A DNA stretch of 64,000 bases. Origin: Rhodocyclales bacterium. Lineage in GTDB: Bacteria > Pseudomonadota > Gammaproteobacteria > Burkholderiales > Rhodocyclaceae. Below the pieces are notes generated by a model that saw nothing but the letters and a program-made list of their open reading frames with translations, was not told the DNA's origin and searched no databases. The stretch spans positions 154,550 through 218,549 of the forward strand of contig JACRPA010000010.1 in NCBI GenBank assembly GCA_016214145.1, read 5' to 3'. Shown here piece by piece: positions 4,138 to 60,038 of this stretch (position 1 is its first letter; each line of letters starts with the position of its first letter). The translations under genes and the position numbers were made by a program.

Positions 4138-4575
4138 CTAAACAGCGGGCGCGACTGGTCCCAAGGCCTCAACTGCAATTTGCAGTTCCTTTGCGACCGC
4201 AATGAGTTCTCCGATCAGTTGCTCGTCTTCGGCGAAGTCGCCGTCATAGAGGGCTATATTCCGCTTCTTGTGGCAGTCGTCAAGAAATCGCCATTTGGCC
4301 GGCGGGAAGGACAAGGTATGCCCCAGAACCTGGAAGACGGTGTAGCGATTTTCCGAGCGGTAGCCATGCCAGCGCAGTGCCGCGAGGGCAAGTGAATGGG
4401 CCGCATCGTAAGCAAGGGTGAAGCGGCTTTCGAGTGACAGCGCCGGGTTATCGGCGTCAGGCAGTTTCCGCCTGGCCGATCTGACCAGCCCATCGAACTC
4501 GACCTGATCCGGCGGTTCAGCCTTGATCTGACCGATCTTCTGCAGGTTCTGCAGACTTTCCTGTGGGGATGGCAC
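4138..4575 (-). CDS. HEPN-like toxin partner of the upstream nucleotidyltransferase (putative)
   Basis: The ORF overlaps the 3' end of the MNT gene. Conserved-looking core: ESRFTLAYDAAHSLALAALRWHGYRSENRYTVFQVL...CHKKRNIALYDG. The start is ambiguous (GTG 4575 or GTG 4617; no in-frame ATG). Confidence 0.55.
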   Translation of the reverse strand: MPSPQESLQNLQKIGQIKAEPPDQVEFDGLVRSARRKLPDADNPALSLESRFTLAYDAAHSLALAALRWHGYRSENRYTVFQVLGHTLSFPPAKWRFLDDCHKKRNIALYDGDFAEDEQLIGELIAVAKELQIAVEALGPVAPAV

Positions 4576-5161
4576 TCTCGTCTCCCATGAGAATGATCTT
4601 CGGCTGCTTGAGAACACGAGTCACGAAATGGTTGTCGCCCTGCACTTTCTTGTTGAATTCCTCAACCGAGTAAAGCGTGGGGCTCACCTTGCGGCCCAGG
4701 GTTCCCTCAACCTTCGTTAGCGCCTCGAACAGCATGCTGTAGCTCAAGTCATCGGCAACCACCAGGACGTCGATGTCGCTGGCGGCCGTATCCGCGCCCT
4801 TGGCGACCGAGCCGAATATGAAGGCAAGGCGTATGGTATCGCCATATTCGGACAGGGCAAGGCGCAGGATGTCGGACATGCCGAAAGTCTTGAGCACGAT
4901 CCCCCGAAGCTCTTCAAAGATGGGTGAGCACTTATTGGCCTGGTAGTGTTTCTGCTTGCCGATGGCGGTCATCGTGATCAAGCCGGAGGCGGTCATCCGC
5001 TCCAACTCCCGCTGCAAGGCGCCACGCCCCGTCCTGCCCAGCTTCGCGATTTCATTGGCGTAGAAAGACCGATCCGGTTGCCCGAACAGCAGGCCAAGTA
5101 CCCGCTGCTGGACGCCGGAGAACAGAACAGTCGAAATTGATGCCAAGCTTGTTTTCCCCAT
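4517..5161 (-). CDS. wHTH + minimal nucleotidyltransferase (MNT-type antitoxin)
   Basis: Start taken at MGKTSLAS (ATG 5161). The N-terminal winged-helix-like region is YANEIAKLGRTGRGALQRELERMTASGLI. The NTase motif is FGSVAKG...SDIDVLVV. Confidence 0.7.
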   Translation of the reverse strand: MGKTSLASISTVLFSGVQQRVLGLLFGQPDRSFYANEIAKLGRTGRGALQRELERMTASGLITMTAIGKQKHYQANKCSPIFEELRGIVLKTFGMSDILRLALSEYGDTIRLAFIFGSVAKGADTAASDIDVLVVADDLSYSMLFEALTKVEGTLGRKVSPTLYSVEEFNKKVQGDNHFVTRVLKQPKIILMGDESAIPTGKSAEPAEDRSDQG

Positions 5162-5336
5162 AATAGGGATTATCGACCCTGATTTGGGGAAAAGGCAAGG
5201 GTCGAAAGTGAATTGAATCTGGTCACAATTCCCCAATATAGGGACGGTAAGACCCAATTTAGGGTAGATTTCTATCTACCGCCCGAACACCCGCGCCAGC
5301 GCAGCACCGCGTTGGCGCCCGCTGTGGCGTTGTCCA

Positions 5337-5773: not shown

Positions 5774-5925
5774 ATGAAATACACCACCCGCATCAAGCCC
5801 ATCAGCTACGTGAAGTCAACCGCGGCGGAAATCATCCGCGAGCTCGCCGAGCGGCGCGAGCCTTTGGTCATCGCCCAGAACGGCGAAGCCAGGGCGGTCA
5901 CCTGGACCCGCAGTCATTCCCATGC
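5774..5925 (+). pseudogene. Truncated Phd/YefM-family antitoxin
   Basis: AAGGAGG followed by ATG 5774. The translation MKYTTRIKPISYVKSTAAEIIRELAERREPLVIAQNGEARAV is a typical antitoxin N-terminus. The expected continuation (LDPQSF...) is in another frame, and the gene runs into the 3' end of the SIR2-like gene. No cognate toxin is present. Confidence 0.5.
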
Positions 5926-7770
5926 CTACTTAAGAATTTGCGCAATCGTCAATTTCACCCGCTCGAAAAACCTGAGATCGATTGGCTTATCTAAATTATT
6001 CCAGGCGTCTTCACACAAGCTACGTATATCACCCGTGTAGATTTGATCAAGGCGATCAGGAACGGTAACGCCCAGATTTGCGGAGAGTGCCAGTGATATG
6101 TAGTCGCCAAACTCATGGTTTACGGCACCCGGCATTTCACAAAAGGACTTCTGCGATGCACGTTGATTCTTCCCATGCTGCAACAGAGCGGAAATCAAAC
6201 GTATCGCGTGATAATCGAAGCTCCCATCAACCTTATGCGCCACAAGCATTTCGAGCTGAGAAGCGGGGATAGTCAACAGTTCGTGAATGTTCCACTCGAA
6301 ATCATCGTCCAGATGATTCTCTTCGCCAATGGATTTCAGGTATTGCTGCAGGTACTTGAAGGCCACTGAAAGTTTTCCATGGGCATACCCATCAAACTCT
6401 GGCGAATTCGACAAAACGCGAAGCAGATTATCCAGCGCCATCGCTAGATTTTTGTCCGTTTGCTGAGTCGCAAAAGAATGTCCATGAAACACACGCTGCA
6501 TGGCAGAAAGATATTGGCGTGTTGCGGCTTGCGGAACAGCCTGGTGCAACCAGTGCAGCAATGGCATCAGGTCGATGAAATCGCCGAGGAAATGGCTCAA
6601 ATCCATGTCCAGCTTGATTGGTGCCTCTTCAACCGGTAGCGGTTGAGGCGCGACGCCCCGGTGCCGTAGCTCGTTCTTGGCAAGGCTGAGTATGTTTTCG
6701 ACTAGCTCATAGCGCCCTTTCTCAAACCAGATAGGGGTAATGCCCAGCTTGGCCAGTTCTGAATTGCGCTGCGCGATCTTTTCCGGGCTTTCGGGGGCCT
6801 GCTCGATGGAGAAGTGCTGTTTGGTCTCCTCCTCTTCGCCCATCCCTTCTTTGACTTTCCTGAATACCTGAACCGTCCTGTCATTGCTCAGGCTACAGCC
6901 CAAAAAGAGCAGGCTGCTGTTTTTGTAAAGGTAGGCGAGCAGCTTGGGAATAGGCTTGTGCATATTCAGGCTGCCGTTGCCGTAGGCTTCGTCGTATTGG
7001 TCCTTGCTGAGGATGCAGCGCTTCGGCTCGCGAATATCGCCGTGCAGCTTGATGACCGTGATCTTCTTCGGATCGGGCTGCTCCAGCGCATTCAGGCCAT
7101 TGATTACCTGAACCCTGCCTACCTCGCCGGTTTCAAAAGATTGCTCCAGCAAGCGATCATAGTTGGTTGTAATGACTGTATCCGTGAACAGCTCGGAGAT
7201 ACGCCAGACCACATCGGGGATGGTGAGGTTACGGGAAAACTCATCGCGAATTTCATTGATGAACACCTCGCGGCCACGGACGGCCTCGATCTCTTCAAGC
7301 ACGGTTTCGTAGGCGCCGCTGGCCAATAGCGCTTCTATACGTTCCGAAGCGATATGTGCCGTTTTGCCTTGGCGCCGCAGATGATCTTTCCAGCTTGAAA
7401 AACCGGCCGATGCCGAAATGCCCGCACCGACAAACGGCACCACCGCCCCGGCATACATGAGATCGACAAGTTGAATGAAGTGATCCACATTGCGCTGGAA
7501 CCAGTGATCATCGCCAAGCTGCTCTTGAAACCAGGCTTCGCCCAGCGCCTCGTGACGACGCTGTTTGCGAAACGCCTGAAACGCTTCGTCATAACTGCTT
7601 CTGTCACCCGAGAAAAGCGCCTTGCTGGGCTGGGGCAAGGCATCGACTCCATATTCAACCCGGGCAGCTTGCCCCTCCTCGTTATCCAGCCACTCATTGA
7701 AATCGGCAAAGTGCTCGTAACGGCAATGCTCGTCTTCGTCACACCAGATTTTTTGCGGCGCCGGCGTCAT
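5926..7770 (-). CDS. SIR2-like (SIR2_2 family) domain protein with unassigned N- and C-terminal regions; putative NAD+-consuming defence effector
   Basis: 614 aa. Motifs VPFVGAGISASAG, VITTNYDRLLE, IKLHGDI and LLFLGCSLSND occur in the order characteristic of prokaryotic SIR2_2 domains. ATG 7770 lies 10 nt after the hsdS stop on the same strand. Confidence 0.75.
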   Translation of the reverse strand: MTPAPQKIWCDEDEHCRYEHFADFNEWLDNEEGQAARVEYGVDALPQPSKALFSGDRSSYDEAFQAFRKQRRHEALGEAWFQEQLGDDHWFQRNVDHFIQLVDLMYAGAVVPFVGAGISASAGFSSWKDHLRRQGKTAHIASERIEALLASGAYETVLEEIEAVRGREVFINEIRDEFSRNLTIPDVVWRISELFTDTVITTNYDRLLEQSFETGEVGRVQVINGLNALEQPDPKKITVIKLHGDIREPKRCILSKDQYDEAYGNGSLNMHKPIPKLLAYLYKNSSLLFLGCSLSNDRTVQVFRKVKEGMGEEEETKQHFSIEQAPESPEKIAQRNSELAKLGITPIWFEKGRYELVENILSLAKNELRHRGVAPQPLPVEEAPIKLDMDLSHFLGDFIDLMPLLHWLHQAVPQAATRQYLSAMQRVFHGHSFATQQTDKNLAMALDNLLRVLSNSPEFDGYAHGKLSVAFKYLQQYLKSIGEENHLDDDFEWNIHELLTIPASQLEMLVAHKVDGSFDYHAIRLISALLQHGKNQRASQKSFCEMPGAVNHEFGDYISLALSANLGVTVPDRLDQIYTGDIRSLCEDAWNNLDKPIDLRFFERVKLTIAQILK

Positions 7771-7780
7771 GTCCCGCTAC

Positions 7781-9526
7781 TCAGCAGACGGCCTGTTCGA
7801 CGATGGCGTCGGCGAGGTGGATTTGGGTGGTTTGGGCGTCTTGGATGCGCGCCTTGAGGGCGTCACACAGGGCTATGAGTTCATCGACTTTGGCGACGAT
7901 GCGGTGTTGTTCGTCTAATGGCGGCAACGGGATTTCTAACGTTTGTAGCGCCGTTTTCTGAAGGTTGTTTATCCCGATGCCTTTCCCATGACCGGCAGCC
8001 CGATTTCTGTATAACGGAGTCTGGAAAAAGAAGCCAAAATAGCTATGAAGCTCATCAGAAACTGGTCTTATAACGCCACAGAACGCGCCAAATCCTCCTT
8101 CGAAATCCTCTGTTGCTTGAGCTGCCTTACCGACGAGATCGGCACTTCCACTGGACATTGCGATAACTATGTCACCTGCCTTTACATACTGCGCATCATT
8201 TAGAAGTTGCTTCGGCACGAAGACTTGGTTATCAAAATTGAGGGTTTGATTTATGTTATTTCCGCGCAGGAGAGGGACGTAATTTGCCTGGGGGACGTCG
8301 CTGGCTTCCGATTTGCCATATGTCACGCCACGAATGGTTTCGGCTATTTCACCGAGTCTTACCCACTCCCACCCCGGTGGCTGAGTAATCGGCTTATCCT
8401 CATCAGCGACTGGCGATAACGGTTTGTCTTTCTTGATCTTGCCCTCAGCGATCAACTTCGCTTTTTCAACCTGAATGCGTTTGAGCAGCACACTCGCCGG
8501 TACATCGTTGGGGTCTTGGGGAACGAGTTTGCCCATGACGGCGAGTTGCAGGGTGGTTTGTTTAAGTTGGTCGATGCTTGCTTCGGTGGTAAACAGGGTA
8601 TCGAAGTGGTTGGCGATACGCGCCCAGGCTACGTTGAATTCCTGTTGCGACGCGACGCGGGTGAGCGTGCCGAGCAGGGTCTCCACCAAGGTTTGGTGGG
8701 CTGCGAGTCTGTCGGTTTGCTGTCGTTCCAGTTGGTCGCACAAGGCCATGAGCTCATCGACTTTGGCGACGATGCGGTGTTGTTCGGCACTAGGAGGAAT
8801 GGGAACGAGGCCGCCATAAAACTGCTTGTCGTTTATTGCCGGATACGCAATACCGGTTTGAACCTTCTCGACATACTTCACAAATTCGGGGCTTCTGAAA
8901 TACAGCGCAAAGAACTTGCCGGGCATGTCTTGGAACGGATGCAGCACAGCAAAAGCTGTGCTTGCGATAGCTTCCGGTGAGTAGTCCTCTTCAATTACAC
9001 AAATGTTCTTGAGATAGGGCCGCACCGTTGAATAAATAACAGTGCCTTTTGTTACTATTTTTCTTGCCCGCGAAGGTGCGTCGGCTGCGCTCAATAAGCC
9101 CGGCGAGCTGATAACGCCTGCGGTGTTATCAATCGCAGAGACATCGATGTAGATGAATTTTGCATCAGGCGTCTTTTGCCCCCAATCATGACCTACATCA
9201 TTAATCCGGGCCCACTCCCACCCGCCCGGCACATTGAATGGAATTTCTTCGTCAGTGATAGCCGGGAAATCCTTTTCTTTTCTGATTTTCCCTTCTTTTA
9301 CCATCTTGGCCTTATCTGCCGCGACTCGTTTTAATAGCTCTCTCGCCGGTTCGTCGCTCTGGTCCTGCGGCACGAGCTTCCCGCGCACCGCGAGTTCCAG
9401 AATCAACTCGCGCAGCTTCTTGATGCCATAGGCTTCCAGCTTGCCGTTGCTGCCGCGTCCGGCGGTGGACTTGGTGAGCAGCGCCGAGGTCCACAGGTCG
9501 AGATTGTCGGTGATGACTTCCGCCAT
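7781..9526 (-). CDS. hsdS: Type I restriction-modification specificity subunit
   Basis: Two target-recognition halves are separated by duplicated conserved regions (DEQHRIVAKVDELMALCDQLE and DEQHRIVAKVDELIALCDALK). The start is ATG 9526, or GTG 9532 overlapping the hsdM stop. Confidence 0.9.
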   Translation of the reverse strand: MAEVITDNLDLWTSALLTKSTAGRGSNGKLEAYGIKKLRELILELAVRGKLVPQDQSDEPARELLKRVAADKAKMVKEGKIRKEKDFPAITDEEIPFNVPGGWEWARINDVGHDWGQKTPDAKFIYIDVSAIDNTAGVISSPGLLSAADAPSRARKIVTKGTVIYSTVRPYLKNICVIEEDYSPEAIASTAFAVLHPFQDMPGKFFALYFRSPEFVKYVEKVQTGIAYPAINDKQFYGGLVPIPPSAEQHRIVAKVDELMALCDQLERQQTDRLAAHQTLVETLLGTLTRVASQQEFNVAWARIANHFDTLFTTEASIDQLKQTTLQLAVMGKLVPQDPNDVPASVLLKRIQVEKAKLIAEGKIKKDKPLSPVADEDKPITQPPGWEWVRLGEIAETIRGVTYGKSEASDVPQANYVPLLRGNNINQTLNFDNQVFVPKQLLNDAQYVKAGDIVIAMSSGSADLVGKAAQATEDFEGGFGAFCGVIRPVSDELHSYFGFFFQTPLYRNRAAGHGKGIGINNLQKTALQTLEIPLPPLDEQHRIVAKVDELIALCDALKARIQDAQTTQIHLADAIVEQAVC

Positions 9527-9528
9527 GG

Positions 9529-11007
9529 TCACGCCTCGCCCCGGTGCAAGGCCTGCTGCAGGATGTCCTTGAGCTGATTGCGCAGTCCGGCGATGCCTTC
9601 CTGCTGCTGCCGGTATCGCTGCAACAGTTCGTCCGGGTCGTGGCTGATCTGTTCGCCGACGTGGGGGTTCTTGATGTCGAGGTTGTAGTTGCGCGCGACG
9701 ATGTCGGCGACCGGCACTTTCCAGGCCTGCTCGGTCTGTACCCGCACCTTGAACCCATCCGCCTCGTCACCCCACCAGGCGATCTCAGTTTCGAATTCCT
9801 CGAAGCGCATGGGCTTGGTCTTGTTGTAGCTCTTCACGCCCTCCGGGTAGGGGTGCTCGTAAAACCAGACGTGCTCGGTGGGCTGGCCCTTGGTGAAAAA
9901 CAGCAGGTTGGTTTTGATGCCGGTGTAGGGATTGAACACGCCGTTGGGCAGGCGCACGATGGTGTGCAAGTTGCACTCTTCCAGCAGAGATTGCTTGAGG
10001 CGGGTCTTCATGCCTTCGCCAAACAGGAAGCCATCGGGCAACACCACAGCGGCACGGCCTTGGTCCTTAAGCAACTTGATGACCAGGGCCATGAACAAGT
10101 CCGCCGTTTCACGGGTGCGCAGGTGGGCGGGGAAGTTGTTTTCGATACCGTCCTCTTCCATGCCGCCGAAGGGCGGGTTGGTGATGATGACGTTGACGCG
10201 GTCGGCGTTGCCGTAGTCCTTGTAGGGGCGGCTCAGGGTGTTGTCGTGCTTGATGTATGTGGGGGTGTCGATGCCGTGCAGGATCATGTTGGTGACGGCG
10301 AGCATGTGCGGCAGCGCCTTTTTTTCAAAGCCCCGGATGGAGTTGACCAGCGTTTCTTCGTCTTCGCGAGTTTTGACGTAATGCTCGCGCTTGTGGTCGA
10401 TGGTGCAGGTGAGAAAGCCGCCGGTGCCACAGGCAGGGTCGAGCACGGTTTCTTCCAGCTTGGGGTCAACGCGGTTGACAATGAAGCGGGTGACGGCGCG
10501 CGGGGTGTAAAACTCGCCCGCGTTGCCCGCGCTTTGCAGGTCGCGCAGGATTTGTTCGTAGATACTGCCGAAAGTGTGGCGGTCGCCGCTGTTGTTGAAG
10601 TCGATTTCGCAAATCTTGTTGATGACCTGGCGCATCAGCGTGCCGGACTTCATGTAGTTGTAGGCGTCTTCAAACACGCTGCGCACCACTTGGGCGCGCT
10701 GCCCTGTTGGACCATGTGTAGGCAACTTTTCCTTCAATGTAGGGAATAGTTGCATGTTCACGAAATCAGCCAGCGGTTCGCCGGTCATACCTTCTGGATT
10801 CTTCGCCCAATTTCTCCAACGAAGATGCTCTGGCAGCGGAGATTTGTAACCTTCTTCCAGATATTCCAGTTCCGTTTCGCGGTCGTCGAAGATTTTCAGG
10901 AAAAACATCCAGACCAGTTGGCTGATGCGCTGGGCGTCGCCATCGACGCCGACATCCTTGCGCATGATGTCCTGTATGGATTTGATGATGCCGGAAACAT
11001 TACTCAT
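9529..11007 (-). CDS. hsdM: Type I R-M N6-adenine DNA methyltransferase subunit
   Basis: 492 aa with the AdoMet motif LDPACGTGGFL and the catalytic NPPFGG. It shares an ATGA overlap with the hsdR stop. Confidence 0.95.
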   Translation of the reverse strand: MSNVSGIIKSIQDIMRKDVGVDGDAQRISQLVWMFFLKIFDDRETELEYLEEGYKSPLPEHLRWRNWAKNPEGMTGEPLADFVNMQLFPTLKEKLPTHGPTGQRAQVVRSVFEDAYNYMKSGTLMRQVINKICEIDFNNSGDRHTFGSIYEQILRDLQSAGNAGEFYTPRAVTRFIVNRVDPKLEETVLDPACGTGGFLTCTIDHKREHYVKTREDEETLVNSIRGFEKKALPHMLAVTNMILHGIDTPTYIKHDNTLSRPYKDYGNADRVNVIITNPPFGGMEEDGIENNFPAHLRTRETADLFMALVIKLLKDQGRAAVVLPDGFLFGEGMKTRLKQSLLEECNLHTIVRLPNGVFNPYTGIKTNLLFFTKGQPTEHVWFYEHPYPEGVKSYNKTKPMRFEEFETEIAWWGDEADGFKVRVQTEQAWKVPVADIVARNYNLDIKNPHVGEQISHDPDELLQRYRQQQEGIAGLRNQLKDILQQALHRGEA

Positions 11008-13358
11008 GCAGATTCTTCCCTTCTATACAGCTCTTGTTCCAGTTCCTGGATGGCGGTATCGAACTGTTCCTTGCCGCCGAAGATGGTGTTGATGATTTCC
11101 ACGGGCGTTCCCATGGTCTTGAACGGATCGAGGCGCAGCACCTTGGCGCTTTCCAGTGTGGCGATGCCTTCGTCGGCATATTTGTCGAGCAGCGCGGTGA
11201 GCACTGCGCGGGCCTGCTCGCCATATTTGGTGAAGTAGTTGCGCTTCTTGACCTTGTTGGCGCGTTCTTTTCTCGTCAGTGGCGGCTGGCCCCAGGCGAT
11301 GTGGCAGATCAGGTCGAAATCGCCGTAGTCCTTGCCGATTTCCGTGGCGAGGTTGTCCAGCACGATGCCGTGCTCTTCCAGTTCGTCGATGATGGCCTGC
11401 TTTTTCGCGGCGCCGTTCCAACGACTGAGGAAGTCATCCAGCGAAGCAAATTCGTTCTGAATCTGCTTGCGGCTAAAGTCCTTGTAGGACTCGGTGATGA
11501 GGTTACCGTCCGGCCCGATGTACTCGACGCGCTCGGAAATGATATTGACGTCTACCCCGCTGACGCGGACTTTGTAAACGCCCGGCGGCTCTTCGACGCC
11601 CTCAGGTTCTTTGTCCTCTTCGTCCGGGTAGCCCGGATCGGGCGGCACGGGGTCGTCGTCATTGCCGGGTTCGTAGATCACCACCGCTTCGCCATCGAAA
11701 TCCGGGTCACGGAACAGTTCGGTGGCCTTCTTGAAGTCCATGATGGTGAAGAACCACTTGTTGTTTTCCTCGTCGATGCGGGTGCCACGCCCGATGATCT
11801 GTTTGAAGCTGGTCATCGAGGTGATAGTCTTGTCCAGCACGATGAGCTTGCAGGTCTTGGCATCGACGCCGGTAGTCAGCAATTCCGAAGTGGTGGCGAT
11901 GACCGGGAACTTGCTCTCCGGATCAATGAAGTTGTCCAGCTCGGCCTTGCCTTCAACGCTGTCCCCGGTGATGCGCATGATGTATTTCGGGTTGTCCAGC
12001 GCAAGCCGGCCCGCCGCATTCACCAGCGCCACGCGCATGCGTTCGGCGTGGTCGATGTCTTCGCAGAAAACGATGGTCTTGGAAAACGGGTCGGTCGCAT
12101 TGAGGTATTGCATGATGCGCTTGGCAACCAGCTTGGTGCGCTGGTTGAGCACGAGGATGCGATCCATGTCTTTCTGGTTGTATTCGCGCTGCTCGATTTC
12201 CTGTCCCAGGTCGTCCTTCATGCCTGGCGGCGGCGTCCAGCCTTCGATGTCCTTGTCGATGTCGATTCGCACGACCTTGTAAGGCGCGAGAAAGCCATCT
12301 TCGATCCCCTGCTTGAGGCTGTAGGTGTAAACCGGCTCGCCGAAGTAGGTGCTGCTTGAGACGTATTTGGTTTCCTTGGGTGTAGCGGTGAGGCCAAGCT
12401 GAACTGCATTGTCGAAGTATTCGAGAATTTCACGCCAAGCGGAGTCGTCGGCCGCGCTGCCGCGATGGCATTCGTCGATGACGATCATGTCGAAAAAATC
12501 GTGCGAGACACTTTTAAAAATCTTGTCTTCTTCGTCCGGGCCGGTGATGGCCTGATACAGGCCCAGGTAGATTTCGTAGGACGGGTCGATCTTGCGGTTC
12601 TTGATCTTCGTCATGACCGAGCCGAAGGGCTTGAAGTCGTTGACGAGGGTCTGGTCGACGAGGATGTTACGGTCAACCAGGAACAGAATGCGTTTGACCA
12701 CCCCGGCCTTCCACAAGCGCCAGATGATCTGGAATGTCGTGTAGGTCTTGCCGGTGCCCGTCGCCATAACCAACAGCACGCGTTTATTGCCACTGGCTAC
12801 TGCTTCGACGGTGCGGTTGATAGCCTCCACCTGGTAGTAGCGAGGCTCCTTGCCAGAAACGTCCAGGTGGTATGGCTGCACGACCAGTTTTTCTGCATCG
12901 TCTCCGATGCCACGATAAGACTTGTAGCGCTTCCATAGGTCTTGGGGAGAGGGAAACGCTTCAAGGGGGAATTCGGTCTCGATTTCTTCGCCCGAGAGGG
13001 GCGCTTTATTGTGGGAGGCGAAGGCATCGCCGTTTGAACTAAAGGCGCTTGGCACATCGAGGATTTCCGCATAGCCCAGCGCCTGCTGCATGCCATGGCT
13101 GACGGTGTAATTGTTGTCCTTGGCCTCAACCACAGCGACGGGCACACCCGGCTCCCAGGACAATACATAGTCAGCAAACTTCTTCTTTTTCTTGTTGCGC
13201 GAAGACATGTTGCCGCGCACGACAATCGGACCAGGGGTAAGGGTAACTTCGCGGCGAATCTGGTTCATCGAGTCCCAGCCAGCGTTTCTGATCGCCGGGG
13301 TAATAAACAGATCGCAAATATCGGTTTCGCTGAGTTCTTTTTTATCTTTGTTATTCAT
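11004..13358 (-). CDS. hsdR: Type I R-M restriction endonuclease/helicase subunit
   Basis: N-terminal nuclease motif VVEAKD, helicase motifs MATGTGKT and VIDECHRGS. The start is placed at ATG 13358, preceded by GGAGGGG; the ORF track starts at 13382. Confidence 0.93.
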   Translation of the reverse strand: MNNKDKKELSETDICDLFITPAIRNAGWDSMNQIRREVTLTPGPIVVRGNMSSRNKKKKKFADYVLSWEPGVPVAVVEAKDNNYTVSHGMQQALGYAEILDVPSAFSSNGDAFASHNKAPLSGEEIETEFPLEAFPSPQDLWKRYKSYRGIGDDAEKLVVQPYHLDVSGKEPRYYQVEAINRTVEAVASGNKRVLLVMATGTGKTYTTFQIIWRLWKAGVVKRILFLVDRNILVDQTLVNDFKPFGSVMTKIKNRKIDPSYEIYLGLYQAITGPDEEDKIFKSVSHDFFDMIVIDECHRGSAADDSAWREILEYFDNAVQLGLTATPKETKYVSSSTYFGEPVYTYSLKQGIEDGFLAPYKVVRIDIDKDIEGWTPPPGMKDDLGQEIEQREYNQKDMDRILVLNQRTKLVAKRIMQYLNATDPFSKTIVFCEDIDHAERMRVALVNAAGRLALDNPKYIMRITGDSVEGKAELDNFIDPESKFPVIATTSELLTTGVDAKTCKLIVLDKTITSMTSFKQIIGRGTRIDEENNKWFFTIMDFKKATELFRDPDFDGEAVVIYEPGNDDDPVPPDPGYPDEEDKEPEGVEEPPGVYKVRVSGVDVNIISERVEYIGPDGNLITESYKDFSRKQIQNEFASLDDFLSRWNGAAKKQAIIDELEEHGIVLDNLATEIGKDYGDFDLICHIAWGQPPLTRKERANKVKKRNYFTKYGEQARAVLTALLDKYADEGIATLESAKVLRLDPFKTMGTPVEIINTIFGGKEQFDTAIQELEQELYRREESA

Positions 13359-13522
13359 TGAATAGAACCCCTCCATGGCCAACGGTAGCGCCTAGCGTGA
13401 ACATCCGTTAGGTTTGAATCAAAACTGCTTTATTATAATTTGCTAGCACATGATGCCAATGTATTCGCTTGATACGCAAGATTAATATGGCTTCCATTTT
13501 GAACTCTATTCTATGAGCAAAC

Positions 13523-13568: not shown

Positions 13569-13597
13569 TAAAAAAGGCAGCCGAGGCTGCCTTTTCT
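13569..13597 (-). terminator. Rho-independent terminator of the atp operon
   Basis: Stem GGCAGCC / GGCTGCC with a 2-nt loop (AG), 20 nt after the atpC stop. On the minus strand the hairpin is followed by a T-run; an A-run/T-run on both sides allows bidirectional use. Confidence 0.8.
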
Positions 13598-48823: not shown

Positions 48824-51358
48824 TTAGGATTTTTTGGTAGTTTTCTTCTTGGCGGGTGCTTTTGCCGCGGTTTTGGCTTTGGTTGTCTCTTCGGCGGCCT
48901 TCTTCGCACCGGCTTTCGGCGCTCGCGGCTCGAACTCGAAACCAACCTTGCCGTCGTCGCCCCTGACCAGATAGGCGGAGAACTTGCGCTTGGTGCGCGC
49001 GGAGATGAAGCCGCGCAGCAGGTCGGTACGGCCGCTGGCAAGCAGCTTGGTCATCTGGGCTCGCTCGACCGGCTGCTGCAGGATGATCTTGCCGGAGCGG
49101 AAATCGCAGGTTTTCGCCGTGCCGACCGCCTTTTCGCAAACATAGGCCATGCCGTGCTCGTAGACTGACGCGCCGCACTTCGGACATTTGCCTAGCGTTT
49201 CCTGACCGCTGAAGTCCACGGTTTCCGCTTCGCCTTCGCCCGACCCGCCCTGGCCGAAGTCGAATTCCGGCTGGTGTTCGGCGTTGAGGCGGATCATGGC
49301 GGCGAACGGCCGCCCCATCTTGCTGCGAAAGCCTTGCAGCGGACCGACCACGCGCCTGGTCAGCAGCTCCTCGATTTCCTCCGGCTCGTACTGACGGCCG
49401 GCGACAACCTTCCACAGCGCATAGTCGCACTTCTTGCACTGGAACTTCTTGTAATTTTCCTGGACCACTCCGCCGCACATCGGGCAGGGGCTTGAAAGGG
49501 TGCTGAAAACCTCCTCGGGGATCTCGCCGTGCTTGATGCGGTCCACCATCTCGCGCGTCTGCCCGACGATATGATCCATGAACTCGTCGCGATCGAGCTC
49601 ACCCTGCTCCATCTGCTTCAGCTTGAATTCCCAGTGGCCGGTCAGTTCGGGTGAATGCAGCTCATCGATGCCAAGGGTGGATAGGGCGACCAGCAGGGAG
49701 GATGCCTTGGCGGTCGGCTGCAGCTCACGGCCGTTGCGGTGCACGTATTCCTCATAAATGAGTCCCTCGATGGTGGCGGCGCGGGTGGCCGGCGTACCGA
49801 GGCCGCGAGCCGACATGGCTTCGCGCAACTCCTCTTCCTCGATCAGCTTGCCGGCGCCTTCCATTGCCGTGAGCAGCGTCGCTTCGGTAAAGCGCGCCGG
49901 CGGCTTGGTCTGGGTCGCCTTGACCTCGATATCGTTTGCCCAGACGCGCTCCTTGGGCTGCACCGGCGCCAATTGCGGCGACTCGTCTTCGCCCTGCGCT
50001 TCCTTGCCGTAGATGACGAGCCAGCCGGCCGATACCAGTACCTTTCCTTCCGATTTGAAGGCCTCGCCTTCAACGCGGGTGACGCGCGTCGTCACGTTGT
50101 ATTCCGCCGCCGGGAAGAAAATTGCGAGGAAGCGCTTGGTGACGAGGTCGTAGAGCTTCTGTTCCGCGTCGGAGAGATTCTTCGGCGCTGTCCCGGTCGG
50201 GATGATGGCGAAGTGGTCGGAAACCTTGGCGTTGTTGAAGATGCGCTTGTTGGGATGCGCCCAGCCGCTCTTGAGAATCTGGCCGGCGAAAACCGCATAG
50301 GGCGTGCCGGAAAAGCCTTTCAACGTCTCCTTCACCGTACCGATGTAGTCTTCCGGCAGGTAGTGCGAATCGGTACGCGGATAAGTCAGCGCCTTGTGCT
50401 TTTCGTAGAGTGCCTGCGCCAGTGACAGCGTGGTCTTGGCGGAAAAACCGAAGCGGCCATTGGCTTCGCGCTGCAGGGAGGTGAGATCGAACAGCAGCGG
50501 AGAGAGCTGCGTCGTCGGCTTGCTTTCTTCCTCCGCTATGCCGTGCTTGCCGAGGCACTGCTTGCGGATGGCCTCGGCGCGCTTGATGTCCCACAGGCGT
50601 TCGGGTTTGGCGTGCTCATCCTCGGACTTGACGAATTTTTCATCGAACCAGCGGCCGCGATAGCTGCCGGCGACGGCGGCGAATTCCGCTTCCACCTCCC
50701 AGTAGTCGCGCGGCCGGAAGGCGCGGATGCGTTCCTCACGCTCAACCAGGATGGCCAGGGTCGGCGTCTGCACGCGGCCGACCGGCGTTTTGTGGAAGCC
50801 GCCTTCCCGAGAATTGAAGGCGGTCATGGCGCGCGTACCGTTGATGCCGATCAGCCAGTCGGCTTCGGAGCGGCAGCGCGCGGCATCCGCCAGCGGCCGC
50901 ATCTCCTTGTCCGTGCGCAGGTGGGCAAAACCCTCGCGGATGGCGCCCTGGGTCATCGACTGCAGCCAGAGGCGGCGCACCGGCTTGTCCGTCTTGGCGT
51001 GCTGCACCAGGTAGCGGAAGATCAGTTCGCCCTCGCGCCCCGCGTCGCAGGCGTTGATGAGTCCGCTGACGTCCTTGCGTTTCATCAGCCGCGTCAGGAG
51101 CTTGAGGCGATCCTCGGTCTTCTCGATCGGGTTGAGTGCGAAATGCGGCGGAATCACCGGCAAGTGGGCGAAGGACCACTTGCCGCGCTTGACTTCGTAT
51201 TCCTCCGGCACGGTCAGTTCGAGCAGATGGCCGATGGCCGACGACAGCACGTAGTCGTCGCTCTCGAAATACTCGCCCTGCTTGCTGAAGCCGCCCAGCG
51301 CCTTGGCGATGTCCTGGGCGACCGAGGGTTTCTCGGCAATGATCAGTTGTTTGCTCAT
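48824..51358 (-). CDS. topB: DNA topoisomerase III with C-terminal zinc-ribbon repeats and a Lys/Ala-rich tail
   Basis: IIAEKPSVAQDIA, AIGHLLEL and DAGREGELIF are type IA / topo III-like motifs. Several CxxC...CxxC pairs occur in the C-terminal third. Confidence 0.88.
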   Translation of the reverse strand: MSKQLIIAEKPSVAQDIAKALGGFSKQGEYFESDDYVLSSAIGHLLELTVPEEYEVKRGKWSFAHLPVIPPHFALNPIEKTEDRLKLLTRLMKRKDVSGLINACDAGREGELIFRYLVQHAKTDKPVRRLWLQSMTQGAIREGFAHLRTDKEMRPLADAARCRSEADWLIGINGTRAMTAFNSREGGFHKTPVGRVQTPTLAILVEREERIRAFRPRDYWEVEAEFAAVAGSYRGRWFDEKFVKSEDEHAKPERLWDIKRAEAIRKQCLGKHGIAEEESKPTTQLSPLLFDLTSLQREANGRFGFSAKTTLSLAQALYEKHKALTYPRTDSHYLPEDYIGTVKETLKGFSGTPYAVFAGQILKSGWAHPNKRIFNNAKVSDHFAIIPTGTAPKNLSDAEQKLYDLVTKRFLAIFFPAAEYNVTTRVTRVEGEAFKSEGKVLVSAGWLVIYGKEAQGEDESPQLAPVQPKERVWANDIEVKATQTKPPARFTEATLLTAMEGAGKLIEEEELREAMSARGLGTPATRAATIEGLIYEEYVHRNGRELQPTAKASSLLVALSTLGIDELHSPELTGHWEFKLKQMEQGELDRDEFMDHIVGQTREMVDRIKHGEIPEEVFSTLSSPCPMCGGVVQENYKKFQCKKCDYALWKVVAGRQYEPEEIEELLTRRVVGPLQGFRSKMGRPFAAMIRLNAEHQPEFDFGQGGSGEGEAETVDFSGQETLGKCPKCGASVYEHGMAYVCEKAVGTAKTCDFRSGKIILQQPVERAQMTKLLASGRTDLLRGFISARTKRKFSAYLVRGDDGKVGFEFEPRAPKAGAKKAAEETTKAKTAAKAPAKKKTTKKS

Positions 51359-51455
51359 GCGGTCCGGCGGCGCGCGTTGGCGCAGCCGTCAATGCGTTGA
51401 AAGGGCGGGATGATAAGGACTGCGGCGCGGACTGGCAAGCCGGAACGATGCGCGC

Positions 51456-51914
51456 TCAATGCAGGTAGCGTGCATCGTTGCCCGATAGCAGCTCTTCCAG
51501 GATCAGGGTGTCCATCGCCTGGTGCTGGTTCCACAGCACCATCAGAACAATGATTTTCAGCCTGGACAGGGACACCGAATGGTCGGACAGGGCCATCGCC
51601 CGTTCGAGGATCAGTTCGCGCGTAAGCGGATTCAGCACCCCGGCGCTTTCCAGGAAGGCCAGAAAGCCGCGGCACTCCGTGTCGAGCTTGGCAATTTCCT
51701 CCGGGCCGAAGCAGCGCACCGAGTCGTTGTCGGCGGCGATCGCGGGCAGGCTGTCGGTACCCGCCTCCTGCAGGCCGTCAAGCCATTGCAGGGCTTCGCT
51801 GATTTCTTCGTCCTCAAAGCCGGCGGCGGAAAGCTTCAAGGCGAGTTGCTCGGGTTCGGGATAGGCGTCGGCGTGGAAAAAGTTTTCGAAGAGATATACG
51901 AGTATGTCGAACAT
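51456..51914 (-). CDS. smg: Smg protein (DUF494)
   Basis: Start at MFDILVYLFENFFHADAYPEPEQLALKLSAAGFEDEEI (ATG 51914); downstream of dprA. Confidence 0.9.
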   Translation of the reverse strand: MFDILVYLFENFFHADAYPEPEQLALKLSAAGFEDEEISEALQWLDGLQEAGTDSLPAIAADNDSVRCFGPEEIAKLDTECRGFLAFLESAGVLNPLTRELILERAMALSDHSVSLSRLKIIVLMVLWNQHQAMDTLILEELLSGNDARYLH

Positions 51915-51934
51915 GGCGGCGTCGTGTCGTCTGT

Positions 51935-53023
51935 TCATGGGCCGATGCGCTGGAACCTTCCTCCCGGCAGATTGGCGACCCGGCCGTCCAGTTCCATTTG
52001 CAACAGGATGGCGTATAGCCTCTCGGTCGTCAAGCCGGATCGCAACGCCAGCGTGTCCATATCGCAAGGATCAAAGCCGATGCAGTCGAGCAGCCTGGCT
52101 GTTTCGGCCGTGGCAACGGACACAGCGGCCACAGCCTTGTCGTCGGCCGTAGCCAGGCCCAGTTCGTCCAGAATGTCGCGCGCATCGTCCACCAGCTTGG
52201 CGCCTTGCTTGATCAGCTTGTGGCAGCCCTTCGACAAGGGGGAGTGGATCGAACCGGGAATGGCGAAAACGTCGCGCCCCTGTTCGCCGGCCAGCCTGGC
52301 CGTGATGAGCGACCCGCTGCGTTCCGCCGCCTCCACCACCAGGCAGCCGCGTGCCAGACCCGAAATGATGCGGTTGCGGCGCGGGAAGTTCTCTCTCAGC
52401 GCCGGCGTGCCGAGCGGGAATTCGCTGACAATGGCACCGTTTGCCGCGATGTCGCGCGCCAGCGCCTGATTGCGCGCCGGGTAGACGCGATCGATCCCGG
52501 TGCCGATCACGGCGATGGTCGAGCCCTTGCCGCGCAGGCCGCCGCGGTGCGCCGCCGCATCGATGCCGAGCGCCAGGCCGCTGATAATGGTCAGCCCGGC
52601 ATCGGCCAGGGCGGCGGCAAAGGCCTCCGCATTGGATTCGCCCTGGGGCGTGGCATTGCGCGAGCCGACGATGGCCAAGGCGGGGGCATTGAGCAATTCG
52701 GTGCGGCCTTTTACATACAGCACGGTGGGCGGATCGGGCGCATCGAGCAGGCGTTGCGGATAGGCCGCATCGGCCAGGGTCAGCATGGTGTTGTCCGGCT
52801 CGGCGGCCCAGGCGAGTGCCGCGTCAATCTCTTCTTGGGAGTCGTGCGACAGCAGTTGCTCCGCTTGCCTGAGCGGGATCGTGCGCGCCAGCGTTGCGGC
52901 GCTGGCGGCAAAAATCTGATCGGGAAGACCGAATGCGGAGAGTAGCTTGCGTTGCGTCTCGCCGCCGATGCCCGGCGCGAGGGTCAGGCGCAGCCAGTCG
53001 GCGAGTTCGCTGGCACCCGGCAC
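51935..53023 (-). CDS. dprA: DNA processing protein DprA (Smf)
   Basis: 362 aa with a Rossmann-like core LAIVGSRNATPQG...VISGLALGIDAAAHRGGL. Confidence 0.93.
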   Translation of the reverse strand: MPGASELADWLRLTLAPGIGGETQRKLLSAFGLPDQIFAASAATLARTIPLRQAEQLLSHDSQEEIDAALAWAAEPDNTMLTLADAAYPQRLLDAPDPPTVLYVKGRTELLNAPALAIVGSRNATPQGESNAEAFAAALADAGLTIISGLALGIDAAAHRGGLRGKGSTIAVIGTGIDRVYPARNQALARDIAANGAIVSEFPLGTPALRENFPRRNRIISGLARGCLVVEAAERSGSLITARLAGEQGRDVFAIPGSIHSPLSKGCHKLIKQGAKLVDDARDILDELGLATADDKAVAAVSVATAETARLLDCIGFDPCDMDTLALRSGLTTERLYAILLQMELDGRVANLPGGRFQRIGP

Positions 53024-56832: not shown

Positions 56833-58004
56833 AAGTTCTCCGGTTGTTGCAACAGATCGCGCAGTTCGGCGAGGAACAGCGCGCCGCGATGGCCGTCCGA
56901 GACGCGGTGATCGGCGGCCAGGCTCGCCGTCACCACGGGCATGATCGTCAGCGCGCCGTTTTCCACCCAGGGCTGCTCGACGATGCGGCCGAAGCCCACC
57001 AGCGCCACCTGCGGCGGATAGATCACGCCGTACACCGCCGCGACACCCTGCTCGCCGAGATTGGTCACCGTGATCGTCGGATCGGACATTTCCGAGCTGC
57101 GCAGCGATCCCGCCCGCGCCCGCTTCACCAGGTCGGTGAGATCCAGCATGAGCTGCTCCGGCGTTTTATCGCCGACGTCATGGATGGCCGGCGCGATGAG
57201 CCCGCCCTGCCGCAGCGATATCGCCACGCCGATGTGCGCGGCGGCGGCGGGCTGGAATGCGCCGTCGCGGAAGAAGCCGTTCATTTCGGGGAATTTCTTC
57301 AGCGCCAGCGCCACGGCCTTCAGTTGCACGACGGCCATGAGCAGGCGCGACGTGATCGGGCGGCCTTCATTCACTTTCGCCAGCCATTCCGTCGCGCGAC
57401 GTATCGGCACCGGCTCGGAAAGGTAGTAATGCGGGATTTCGCGCTTCGAGCGGCTCATCGCGGCGGCGATGGCGCGGCGCATTTCCGCCGACTTGTCCGG
57501 TGTTGCCGCCGTCTTGGGGAGACGGACTTTTGCGGCGATGGCCAGCTCGACGTCTGCCAGCGTTACCGCGCCCTCGGGGCCGGTGCCGACGACCGTCTCG
57601 ATGTCGACGCCGAGTTCCTCGGCATGCTTGCGCGCAGCGGGCGAGATGCGGCGGCGGCCAGCGATTACTCCTTCTCCCGCTGGCGGGAGAGGGCTGCGGA
57701 GAGGGTGGGCCGGCCCTGGCCCCTCTCCCCCGACCCCTCTCCCCGCACGCGGGGCAAGGGGAGACTCACCGGCCTCGAGCAGCGTCGCCATCACCGTGCC
57801 GACCGGAATCGTATCGCCCGGCGCGACGAGTAATTCGAAGACGGTGCCCTCGCACCAGATTTCGACATCCACCGCCGCCTTCGAGGTGTCGACGACGGCG
57901 ACCACCTGGCCCTTCTTCACCGTGTTGCCGGGACTGACTTTCCATTCGAGGAGCTTGCCCTCGTCCATGTCGGCGCCGAGGGAGGGGAGCTTGAATTCAA
58001 TCAT
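56829..58004 (-). CDS. 2-oxoacid dehydrogenase E2 (lipoyl domain + subunit-binding domain + acyltransferase core)
   Basis: Lipoyl-lysine region VVDTSKAAVDVE, subunit-binding domain ISPAARKHAEELGVD, and catalytic DHRVSDG. Confidence 0.9.
   Translation of the reverse strand: MIEFKLPSLGADMDEGKLLEWKVSPGNTVKKGQVVAVVDTSKAAVDVEIWCEGTVFELLVAPGDTIPVGTVMATLLEAGESPLAPRAGRGVGGEGPGPAHPLRSPLPPAGEGVIAGRRRISPAARKHAEELGVDIETVVGTGPEGAVTLADVELAIAAKVRLPKTAATPDKSAEMRRAIAAAMSRSKREIPHYYLSEPVPIRRATEWLAKVNEGRPITSRLLMAVVQLKAVALALKKFPEMNGFFRDGAFQPAAAAHIGVAISLRQGGLIAPAIHDVGDKTPEQLMLDLTDLVKRARAGSLRSSEMSDPTITVTNLGEQGVAAVYGVIYPPQVALVGFGRIVEQPWVENGALTIMPVVTASLAADHRVSDGHRGALFLAELRDLLQQPENL
57668..57765. repeat. REP-like triple-hairpin element lying in frame inside the E2 linker
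   Basis: Three consecutive hairpins: TCTCCCGC-TGG-CGGGAGA, GAGAGGG-N15-CCCTCTC and CCCCGC-AC-GCGGGG. Translated on the gene strand, the element gives SPLAPRAGRGVGGEGPGPAHPLRSPLPPAGEG. Confidence 0.55.
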
Positions 58005-58022
58005 GCCGGAAACCTCTTTTGA

Positions 58023-58087
58023 ACCACGGCGAGCACGGCGACACGGCGAGAATACAAAAAATGTTTTTCGCCGTGCTCGCCGTGGTG
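58023..58087. repeat. Tandem-nonamer hairpin element (CACGGCGAG units) between E2 and E1beta
   Basis: Left arm CACGGCGAGCACGGCGA (58025-58041) pairs perfectly with TCGCCGTGCTCGCCGTG (58068-58084). A third unit lies in the loop. Confidence 0.75.
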
Positions 58088-58101
58088 AAATGCTTTTCCG
58101 T

Positions 58102-59069
<968 letters not shown>

Positions 59070-59073
<4 letters not shown>

Positions 59074-60038
59074 GGCGTGTGCACGTCCTTGAGCAGGTCG
59101 GCCACCGGTTCCCAGGCCGCAGCCTCGGCGAAGTCGACGGCCGCCTGCACTTCGGCATTCGCCTTGGCGTCGAGGGCGAGGAATTCCTCTTCCGTCAGCT
59201 TGCCCTCCGCCTTCAGCCGCGCCGAAAAGGTGTGCAGCGGGCCGCGCTGCTTCCACTGCTCGACCTCCGCCTTGTCGCGATAGAGCTCGGGATCGAACAT
59301 CGAATGGGCGCGGAAGCGGTAAGTCTGGAGTTCCAGGAAGAAGGGGCCGAGGCCGTCGCGCACGTGCCGCGCGGCGAGCTTCATGGCTTCATGCACGGCC
59401 ACGATGTCCATGCCGTCGGCCTTCAGCGTCGGCACGGCGTAGCTGGCCGCCTTGGCGCACAAGTCCGTCTGCGCCTCCGAGCGCGCCAGCGCCGTGCCCA
59501 TGGCGTACAGGTTGTTCTCGCAGCAGAACAGCACCGGCAGCTGCCACAGCGCGGCGAGATTCATCGACTCGTGAAAGGCGCCCTCGGCCATGGCGCCCTC
59601 GCCGAAGAAACAGGCGGTGACGCGCTGTTTGCCTTGGAGCTTGTCCGCCAGGGCGAAGCCGACTGCCAGCGGCAACCCGCCGCCGACGATGGCGTTGCCG
59701 CCGTAGAAGCGCGTGGCGGCGTCGAACAGGTGCATCGAGCCGCCGCGCCCGCGCGAGCAGCCCGCGCGCTTGCCGAACATCTCGGCCATGATGGCGTTCA
59801 TGCTGACGCCGCGCACCAGGGCATGGCCGTGCTCGCGGTAGGTGGCGACGATGTTGTCGTCCGCAGTCAGCGCATGCAGCGCGCCGACGGCGCAGGCCTC
59901 CTCGCCGATGTAGAGATGCAGGAAACCGCGGATCTTCTGCGCGCCGTAGAGCTCGGCGCACTTCTCCTCCATGCGGCGGATGCGCAGCATATCGGCGAGC
60001 AGCTTCTGAGCGAAGGCTTTATCGTAGGGGACAGGCAT
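59070..60038 (-). CDS. 2-oxoacid dehydrogenase E1 alpha subunit (TPP-dependent)
   Basis: Start at [26 protein letters not shown] (ATG 60038). TPP-binding region [34 protein letters not shown]. Confidence 0.92.

Follow-up and report, generated by a model that had tools for sequence, protein, structure and literature searches.

Why does a gene for a SIR2-like protein lie directly behind the specificity gene of a type I restriction-modification (R-M) operon, and what might its product do there? The question is raised by a stretch of 64,000 nucleotides from a Rhodocyclales bacterium (GCA_016214145.1, contig JACRPA010000010.1, positions 154,550–218,549 of the forward strand), referred to below as the window, in which the genes hsdR, hsdM, hsdS and a SIR2_2-family gene follow one another on the minus strand. 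We found that the linkage of this SIR2 gene to hsd genes is conserved and specific to type I operons. Sequence comparison indicates that positions 5926–13358 are a discrete, horizontally mobile cassette, hsdR-hsdM-hsdS-sir2, and the arrangement of SIR2 with R-M genes appears to be undescribed. We tentatively propose that the cassette SIR2 protein is coupled to the R-M enzyme as an abortive-infection guardian, subordinate to the Hsd complex and similar in logic to PrrC and Ronin, that would act by depleting nicotinamide adenine dinucleotide (NAD+).

Organization of the cassette

The first gene, hsdR (11004–13358, on the minus strand like all cassette features), encodes a type IB (EcoAI/EcoEI family) restriction subunit of 784 amino acids. 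It matches ResIII (4e-46), EcoEI_R_C (3.6e-39) and HSDR_N in Pfam and REase_I (E=0) in PADLOC. The second gene, hsdM (9529–11007), encodes an N6-adenine methyltransferase subunit of 492 amino acids with Pfam matches to N6_Mtase (4.6e-76) and HsdM_N (1.4e-12), a PADLOC match to MTase_I (6.6e-245) and an NPPF motif in its translation. It is followed by hsdS (7781–9532), which encodes a specificity subunit of 583 amino acids with two target-recognition domains; Pfam Methylase_S is found in two stretches, and the PADLOC match is to Specificity_I (2.6e-211). The SIR2_2-family gene (5926–7770; 614 codons and a stop) is the last of the cassette. The R-M genes have the features of type I family IB, namely a superfamily 2 helicase core together with EcoEI_R_C in HsdR, and HsdM and a two-domain HsdS encoded with hsdR. 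Plasmid relatives with approximately 60% HsdR identity carry the NCBI annotation 'EcoAI/FtnUII family type I restriction enzyme subunit R', and the cassette R-M system is therefore assigned to type IB. Judged by its sequence, the enzyme is apparently intact. The related plasmid type IB operons do not contain a SIR2 gene, which argues that SIR2 is an accessory addition rather than one of the core subunits.

Adjacent genes of the cassette overlap or nearly abut. The end of hsdR reads GCATGA, and the hsdM start codon overlaps it within the ATGA at 11007–11004. The hsdM stop codon, a TGA at 9531–9529, overlaps a GTG at 9532–9530 and is followed by an ATG at 9526, and hsdS could start at either of these codons. 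Between the hsdS stop codon (TGA, 7783–7781) and the SIR2 start codon (ATG, 7770–7768) lies a spacer of ten nucleotides, GTAGCGGGAC (7771–7780, minus strand). The original prediction, made from the sequence and its open reading frames (ORFs), had described four minus-strand genes with these overlaps and this spacer. Its coordinates all hold, and no terminator-like site was found at any cassette junction on the minus strand. Its choice of the ATG at 13358 as the hsdR start was also sound. Mechanically, the ORF extends to a TTG at 13382, but the ATG is better supported because a Shine-Dalgarno sequence (GGAGGGG) lies nine nucleotides upstream and homologues align from that methionine. A sigma-70-like promoter candidate (TTGGCA-16 nt-TATAAT; 13432–13459, minus strand), proposed from its consensus match alone (11 of 12 positions), sits between the terminator hairpin of atpC (13572–13595) and the hsdR start. 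The four genes probably share a single promoter and are probably also coupled in translation.

Conservation of the linkage in close relatives

The cassette SIR2 protein has more than 900 homologues. The best 120 of those listed are 68–93% identical to it and nearly all full length, and the named organisms among these 120 are Betaproteobacteria (Polynucleobacter, Accumulibacter). An hsdR-hsdM-hsdS set of the same family lies directly upstream on the same strand in all ten species-representative genome loci, one of which is interrupted by IS66. The Accumulibacter loci likewise have hsdS directly upstream of SIR2. Among 31 metagenome loci, upstream sequence was usable in 25, and in every one of these the HsdS C-terminus ends approximately 13 nucleotides before the SIR2 start. 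The spacing in betaproteobacterial relatives is also ten nucleotides, with a junction consensus of TGAGTnnCAGGAC-ATG. Recurring as it does in every related locus with upstream sequence, the hsdS-SIR2 junction is not a product of chance.

The downstream flanks of the 25 loci represent 18 unrelated contexts. When the window is compared with the other loci, DNA similarity breaks off no more than eight nucleotides from the SIR2 stop codon at one end and at the hsdR ATG at the other. Because homology ends at these two points, the SIR2 gene moves as part of the cassette, and the mobile unit is exactly four genes. The tightly coupled four-gene unit that was first proposed from the window is thus also a unit of transfer, as seen from the 18 contexts and the shared ends of homology. 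Within it, the HsdS recognition domains are 34–55% identical between loci whose SIR2 proteins are 82–91% identical.

Many close relatives contain a further gene between hsdM and hsdS that overlaps both and encodes a DUF1016_N/YhcG protein of the PD-(D/E)xK type (PADLOC PDC-S02). It occurs at 7170–8231 in locus L003, at 7187–8239 in locus L011, and in loci L002, L006, L007 and L027–L029; the window cassette does not contain it. In the metagenome locus L049 (146–2248), the match to SIR2 residues 1–295 extends over 2.1 kilobases, implying an insertion of approximately 1.2 kilobases in the 5' part of the gene.

Diverged orthologues and a distant clade

Two orthologues from Flavobacteriia and one from Acidobacteria are 390–419 amino acids long and share 50–52% identity with the window protein over residues 1–380. 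The position of the gene is kept in all three. In the two Flavobacteriia loci, the SIR2 gene overlaps hsdS by four nucleotides, and another defence gene follows SIR2 directly. In locus L009 (11106–15596), this gene overlaps the SIR2 stop codon and encodes a 1496-amino-acid TmtA (Tiamat; PADLOC 3e-290), and in locus L008 (11212–12189) it encodes a PtuA-like AAA ATPase. The acidobacterial locus (L010 8447–9883, Vicinamibacterales) is the sole one in which SIR2 is separated from hsdS, by an IS66 transposase gene on the opposite strand.

A wider, profile-free and exhaustive search with residues 1–380 as query returned 128 cluster representatives at E<1e-30. These include a large set of proteins of 340–390 amino acids that align from the N-terminus with 27–45% identity. 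Eight members of this distant clade were examined, from Lujinxingia, Nannocystis, Pseudogulbenkiania, Aquihabitans, Hymenobacter, Aeromonas jandaei and two metagenomic contigs, and all eight lie inside type I operons. They span Bradymonadia, Myxococcota, Betaproteobacteria, Gammaproteobacteria, Actinomycetota and Bacteroidota. The type I family differs from that of the window, having an HsdR of approximately 1030–1200 amino acids with T1RH-like_C. The gene order is hsdM-hsdS-SIR2-(x)-hsdR in six of the eight operons and hsdM-hsdS-hsdR-SIR2 in the other two. The spacer between SIR2 and the preceding hsd gene is 0–12 nucleotides, or the two genes overlap by 1–4 nucleotides, in all cases except Aquihabitans (22 nucleotides). 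Two of these operons have an additional gene between SIR2 and hsdR, encoding a SLFN_AlbA_2 and HATPase_c_4 protein in Pseudogulbenkiania (L017 9158–11197) and an Abi_2 protein in A. jandaei (L056 9167–10123). The A. jandaei island also has an integrase gene and an Mrr-type gene upstream of hsdM.

The members of this family share an N-terminal extension, described below, and none that bears it was found outside a type I operon in more than 40 loci. Three SIR2_2 relatives without the extension (P0316, P0320 and L055) have no hsd neighbours. Two of them, from the same search, carry fused TSCPD or AEP-like domains in place of the extension, and the third, L055, is metagenomic. No homologues were found in 5,426 E. 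coli genomes or in phages, and the search of plasmids returned only SIR2 proteins that lack the extension. Whether homologues recur next to hsdS had been set beforehand as a check on the original prediction. The outcome is strongly positive, even at approximately 30% identity and in another type I family. Given the eight distant loci and those of the close clade, we regard the sub-family defined by the extension as embedded in type I R-M operons across phyla, type I families and gene orders.

Domains and predicted activity of the SIR2 protein

Alignments and an AlphaFold2 model divide the protein into three parts: an N-terminal extension (residues 1–95; 7486–7770, minus strand), a SIR2 catalytic domain (residues 96–372; 6655–7485, minus strand) and a helical C-terminal domain (residues 385–614; 5929–6618, minus strand). 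The sole recognisable Pfam domain of the 614-residue protein is SIR2_2 (PF13289), at residues 198–347, with 108 bits against a cut-off of 24.5 (E=5.5e-31); the protein has no Pfam match to the classical sirtuin family. The motifs GAGIS, TTNYD, KLHGD and FLGCS, noted in this order in the original prediction, are located at residues 115–119, 201–205, 241–245 and 289–293. A phmmer search of the PDB pairs TTNYD and KLHGD with the motifs TTNYD and KMHGD of Bacillus cereus ThsA (6lhx), and the entry for the N112A mutant (8bto) reads TTAYD at the aligned asparagine position. The expected alignment of the catalytic asparagine and histidine with those of an active enzyme is therefore found, with Asn203 (codon 7162–7164) and His243 (codon 7042–7044) opposite ThsA residues that we take to be N112 and H152. 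N203, K241, H243 and G244 are invariant in 64 family sequences. The top Foldseek matches of the model are the NADases (NAD+ hydrolases) ThsA, DSR2 and KomC, with E-values down to 5e-12. By these alignments, the SIR2 domain has the catalytic residues of active defence NADases, and the protein is predicted to hydrolyse NAD+.

The extension consists of six helices, is acidic and family-specific, and precedes the point at which ThsA-type SIR2 domains start. The predicted local distance difference test (pLDDT) score of the AlphaFold2 model is approximately 85–94 over residues 11–370 and poor over residues 376–614, with values of 32–67 in the C-terminal domain. The extension itself scores approximately 85–90 when modelled with the SIR2 domain and 76.6 when modelled alone, as a helical bundle. 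In an alignment of 28 sequences reaching down to 27% identity, S49, D56 and Y60 of the extension never vary, and F24 and N25 are nearly invariant. In 27 of the 28 sequences the extension is acidic, its net charge lying between −2 and −13; approximately 20% of its residues are aspartate or glutamate. It was compared with known domains but belongs to no Pfam family, and modelled alone it has no significant neighbour in the PDB or BFVD. That it mimics DNA in order to bind the HsdM2S1 cleft would be pure speculation.

The C-terminal domain is specific to the close clade. It is absent from the 390–419-amino-acid orthologues of Flavobacteriia and Acidobacteria and from the distant clade, and it has no Pfam match. 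We considered it as a shared sensor and set this aside, given a homology search that matched the close clade only, the lack of a Pfam match and the low AlphaFold2 confidence. Apparent stand-alone copies of 305 amino acids resemble frameshift fragments; one of these was checked (P0383, on a contig of 1.75x coverage). Since the SIR2 domain and the extension are all that the short forms contain, no candidate other than the extension is left for the specificity to R-M loci.

Comparison with known defence systems

SIR2 domains are effectors of several named systems, and the original prediction had placed this arrangement outside all of those it considered. Our comparison agrees: Thoeris, DSR1/2, SIR2-HerA, SIR2 with prokaryotic Argonaute (pAgo), Lamassu and Avs5 each fail on partner genes or domain architecture. 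Also as predicted, no canonical partner (TIR/ThsB, HerA or pAgo) was detected in the protein, in the island that contains the cassette or among the scanned ORFs of the window; nor was a SLOG domain, a DSR-size sensor or an SMC-like protein.

The closest SIR2 domain is that of Thoeris ThsA (PADLOC ThsA 1.5e-28; PDB 6lhx 8e-14; fold match to 8btp, E=5e-12), with which the asparagine and histidine are shared. However, the cassette protein matches only positions 7–236 of the 478 in the ThsA profile, lacks SLOG/STALD, and has N-terminal and C-terminal domains that ThsA does not have. A gene for the TIR-domain protein ThsB was not found in the island or the scanned window ORFs. DSR1 and DSR2 resemble the cassette protein in combining a SIR2 NADase domain and a helical C-terminal region in one polypeptide, with abortive infection by NAD+ depletion as the predicted outcome. 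However, the DSR proteins are approximately 1000–1200 amino acids long and stand alone, while the cassette protein has 614. Its score against the NCBIfam Dsr2 model is 18.8 bits, compared with a cut-off of 1400, and the PADLOC matches to Dsr1 (6.6e-7) and Dsr2 (4.9e-4) cover the SIR2 part only. Superposition of the C-terminal region is meaningless, with a root-mean-square deviation of 16–21 Å. SIR2-HerA, SPARSA (SIR2-APAZ with a short pAgo) and Lamassu, through LmuA, likewise use SIR2 as the NAD+-depleting effector of multi-gene systems that sense nucleic acids. PADLOC matches of the cassette protein in this direction are weak (LmuA 7.5e-14, SIR2 2e-4, Aga_SIR2 1e-3), and the partner here is a type I R-M system, with HerA, pAgo/APAZ and LmuB/SMC not found in the island or among the scanned window ORFs. 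The occurrence of SIR2-HerA next to R-M genes in S. thermophilus was considered and is a different arrangement. PADLOC-DB v2 has no model for the cassette SIR2 beyond the partial ThsA match.

Effectors that guard R-M systems provide the other comparison. The prrC gene lies between hsdS and hsdR, and this is the slot that SIR2 holds in six of the eight distant-clade loci. PrrC, in the type IC locus EcoprrI, is kept latent by the enzyme and released by the T4 peptide Stp. PrrC and the cassette SIR2 gene are alike in that an accessory suicide-effector gene is embedded in a type I R-M operon and expressed together with it, and a latent, R-M-controlled state is proposed for the cassette protein as well. 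However, PrrC is an ABC-ATPase/HEPN nuclease of tRNA(Lys), whereas the cassette effector is a predicted SIR2 NADase; the R-M system of the window is of type IB with the order R-M-S-SIR2, and in one lineage SIR2 is tolerated after loss of hsdM and hsdS. In Ronin, HsdM and HsdS keep the 61-amino-acid RonA in check, and its release follows the appearance of Ocr, ArdA or Aop1 (Silas et al., bioRxiv 10.1101/2023.04.06.535777). Ronin resembles the cassette in the tight linkage of type I M and S components to a death effector and offers a template for decoy or guard immunity built on Hsd proteins. It differs in having no hsdR and a small membrane peptide as effector, whereas the cassette combines a complete, apparently active R-M system with a soluble enzyme of 614 amino acids. 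The cassette protein, with SIR2_2 as its sole recognisable domain, has no homology to PrrC or to RonA, a transmembrane peptide. EcoR22I is a single R-M system that combines restriction with programmed death, and type I loci are known to host many unrelated accessory genes.

Linkage of an effector to type I hsd genes in more than 40 loci, in two type I families and several phyla, is what would be expected of an abortive-infection guardian of R-M. A 2025 review of R-M biology gives only PrrC and PARIS as examples of such guardians and does not mention SIR2. No description of SIR2 in type I R-M operons was found in the full-text literature, though most papers in subscription journals fell outside the coverage. 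Accessory abortive-infection effectors of type I loci are known; what appears to be new here is the effector class and the family-specific module.

A proposed role and its alternatives

The precedents of PrrC and Ronin, for which restraint by type I components and release by anti-restriction proteins have been demonstrated in experiments, lead us to favour, tentatively, the guardian function proposed above. It is from gene position only that we infer their guard logic for the cassette, which we consider reasonable; abortive infection, physical coupling of SIR2 to the Hsd proteins and the trigger are likewise proposed. Through the N-terminal extension, the NADase would be docked on a part of the enzyme that is conserved, with HsdM or the conserved HsdS helices as the likeliest sites. 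While restriction works normally, the NADase would be off. A phage that perturbs the Hsd complex, for example with an anti-restriction factor like Ocr, ArdA or Stp, would switch SIR2 on, and the collapse of NAD+ would abort the infection, which would amount to the logic of PrrC/EcoprrI and Ronin with a new effector. It is conceivable, and we suggest it with the same reserve, that the extension serves as a general adaptor by which a SIR2 NADase is joined to R-M complexes of different type I families, with Hsd as a sensor of infection that responds to anti-restriction proteins or to non-self DNA.

Several observations weigh against a guardian held in check by the Hsd complex. Type I loci host many unrelated accessory genes, and the same slot in relatives also contains DUF1016/YhcG, SLFN_AlbA_2 and Abi_2 genes, so that position alone is no proof that SIR2 depends on the enzyme. 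As an adaptor, the extension would have to recognise a surface common to two rather different type I families. In the close clade, HsdR is either 93% or 76% identical to that of the window while SIR2 is approximately 87% identical in both groups. This lack of co-variation suggests that the modules recombine, somewhere around hsdS. A deletion lineage was found in three assemblies (L001 8238–11640, L025 7608–10845 and L050 45–2510), in which HsdR 171–581 is fused in frame to HsdS 529–583 and hsdM is gone. The SIR2 gene is nevertheless a full-length ORF, 91% identical to that of the window, in L001 and L025. In L050, the match covers only the first 358 residues, in two overlapping frames. An intact SIR2 ORF despite the loss of hsdM, most of hsdS and both ends of hsdR indicates that SIR2 is tolerated without its supposed inhibitor. 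This is hard to reconcile with Hsd acting as the antitoxin of a constitutively active SIR2. Provided that the remnant is expressed, it is more in keeping with an off-by-default enzyme than with a sequestered toxin.

Individual loci illustrate the identities in the close clade. In L029, HsdR, HsdM and SIR2 are 93%, 91% and 87% identical to those of the window, and in loci with 76% HsdR identity, such as L027 and L034, SIR2 is 86–87% identical. In L001, a Fic/DOC gene and a gene for a RES-domain protein lie upstream of the deletion derivative.

Some of the same evidence would suit a SIR2 protein that works by itself, as a single-gene defence that senses phage through the extension, the C-terminal domain or both and shares the operon for co-expression and co-transfer only. 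R-M loci often carry independent accessory genes, and other defence genes occupy this very slot. SIR2 remains intact after the hsdM/hsdS deletion, the identities of HsdR and SIR2 do not go together in the close clade, the variable C-terminal domain resembles a swappable sensor, and DSR1 and DSR2 are precedents for single-protein SIR2 systems. Even so, we consider such autonomy doubtful. No extension-bearing member occurs outside type I operons in the more than 40 loci, and relatives without the extension are located elsewhere. The linkage persists to 27% identity, into another type I family and another gene order, and cassette homology ends exactly at the SIR2 stop codon. Moreover, the short forms (340–390 amino acids) have no further domain able to act as a sensor beyond the extension and SIR2.

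The linkage that speaks against autonomy would serve equally well a SIR2 protein that is activated when the R-M enzyme engages unmodified DNA, for instance by DNA ends, or by proximity or oligomerisation on complexes that translocate or collide; NAD+ depletion would then be added to DNA cleavage. Defence SIR2 NADases typically become active upon higher-order assembly, and among the solved relatives, by their entry titles, ThsA and KomC form helical assemblies and DSR2 a tetramer. The variant with intact SIR2 and no R-M enzyme fits an off-by-default effector that needs a positive signal, and EcoR22I combines restriction and cell death. However, if the effector fired whenever restriction took place, cells that could be saved by ordinary restriction would die, and the SIR2 protein has no nucleic-acid-binding domain recognisable by Pfam. 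We hold this kind of activation to be unlikely, while noting that the sequence holds nothing that separates it from the guard model. Far less probable still is a regulatory role, in which NAD+-dependent ADP-ribosylation or deacylation of an Hsd subunit, for instance, would tune restriction once the cassette has been transferred or DNA has been damaged. A dedicated regulator could well be encoded at this place in the operon, protein ADP-ribosyltransferases and deacylases are found among SIR2-fold enzymes, and the intact catalytic residues are compatible with any NAD+-consuming chemistry. However, the closest relatives in sequence and structure (ThsA, DSR2 and KomC) are all defence NADases, the protein is a SIR2_2 member without a Pfam match to the classical sirtuins, and the gene is accessory, with related type IB operons working without it.

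To our knowledge, restriction enzymes wired to a suicide effector are known from few cases (PrrC, Ronin and EcoR22I), all in E. coli. If the guardian function is correct, SIR2-mediated NAD+ depletion, regarded here as the most common defence chemistry, would join the effectors wired in this way, and the cassette would represent a widespread and unnamed two-layer system of restriction plus NAD+ suicide, with the first R-M guardian of the NADase type. The arrangement would be ancient and widespread, occurring with two type I families in Betaproteobacteria, Gammaproteobacteria, Flavobacteriia, Acidobacteria, Actinomycetota, Myxococcota and Bradymonadia. At 7.4 kilobases, the cassette is compact and clonable for studying the coupling between restriction as first-line and abortive infection as last-line immunity, and the extension is a defined candidate for the docking module. 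The finding also yields a rule by which to annotate hundreds of 'SIR2 family protein' genes, which PADLOC v2 labels only as partial ThsA.

Genomic setting of the cassette

The window is from the oriC-proximal part of the chromosome and includes dnaA, dnaN, gyrB, yidC, mnmE, parB and the atp operon. The chromosome has a high guanine-plus-cytosine (GC) content of approximately 65%, and the cassette lies in a stretch of 50–58% GC between atpC and leuCD. This low-GC island contains the four cassette genes, a truncated phd gene and an MNT/HEPN pair. The pair (4138–5257, minus strand) consists of overlapping genes for an MntA-like nucleotidyltransferase of 246 amino acids and a HEPN-like protein of 159 amino acids. 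It matches the PADLOC candidate PDC-M05A/B (E=1e-79 and 7e-60) and is therefore taken as a second small defence or toxin-antitoxin module in the island.

Only the 5' half of the phd/yefM antitoxin gene is present (5774–5938, plus strand; positions 2–38 of the 74 in the Pfam profile), and the fragment converges head-on with the SIR2 stop codon. Similarity to Phd/YefM is lost at 5918–5925, where cassette homology begins, and the gene looks as if it had been truncated by the arrival of the cassette. Insertion of the cassette into the phd gene was considered; only the 5' half is there, and a matching 3' half was not found on the other side of the cassette. No toxin gene was found either.

Elsewhere in the window, an ORF of 604 codons (57469–59283, plus strand) and one of 190 codons (59389–59961, minus strand) have no Pfam match at E<=1e-5 and no PADLOC match. 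The GC content at third codon positions (GC3) of the shorter ORF is 0.47, compared with a genome value of approximately 0.9, and the region 57469–59961 may be another foreign insertion. In the region 48824–53023 (minus strand), an ORF of 844 codons has a PADLOC match to DpdF (1.5e-121) that covers the N-terminal two-fifths of the model, and an ORF of 362 codons two genes away matches ShosA/PsyrA (2e-67). These two are probably a housekeeping helicase and DprA rather than defence genes.

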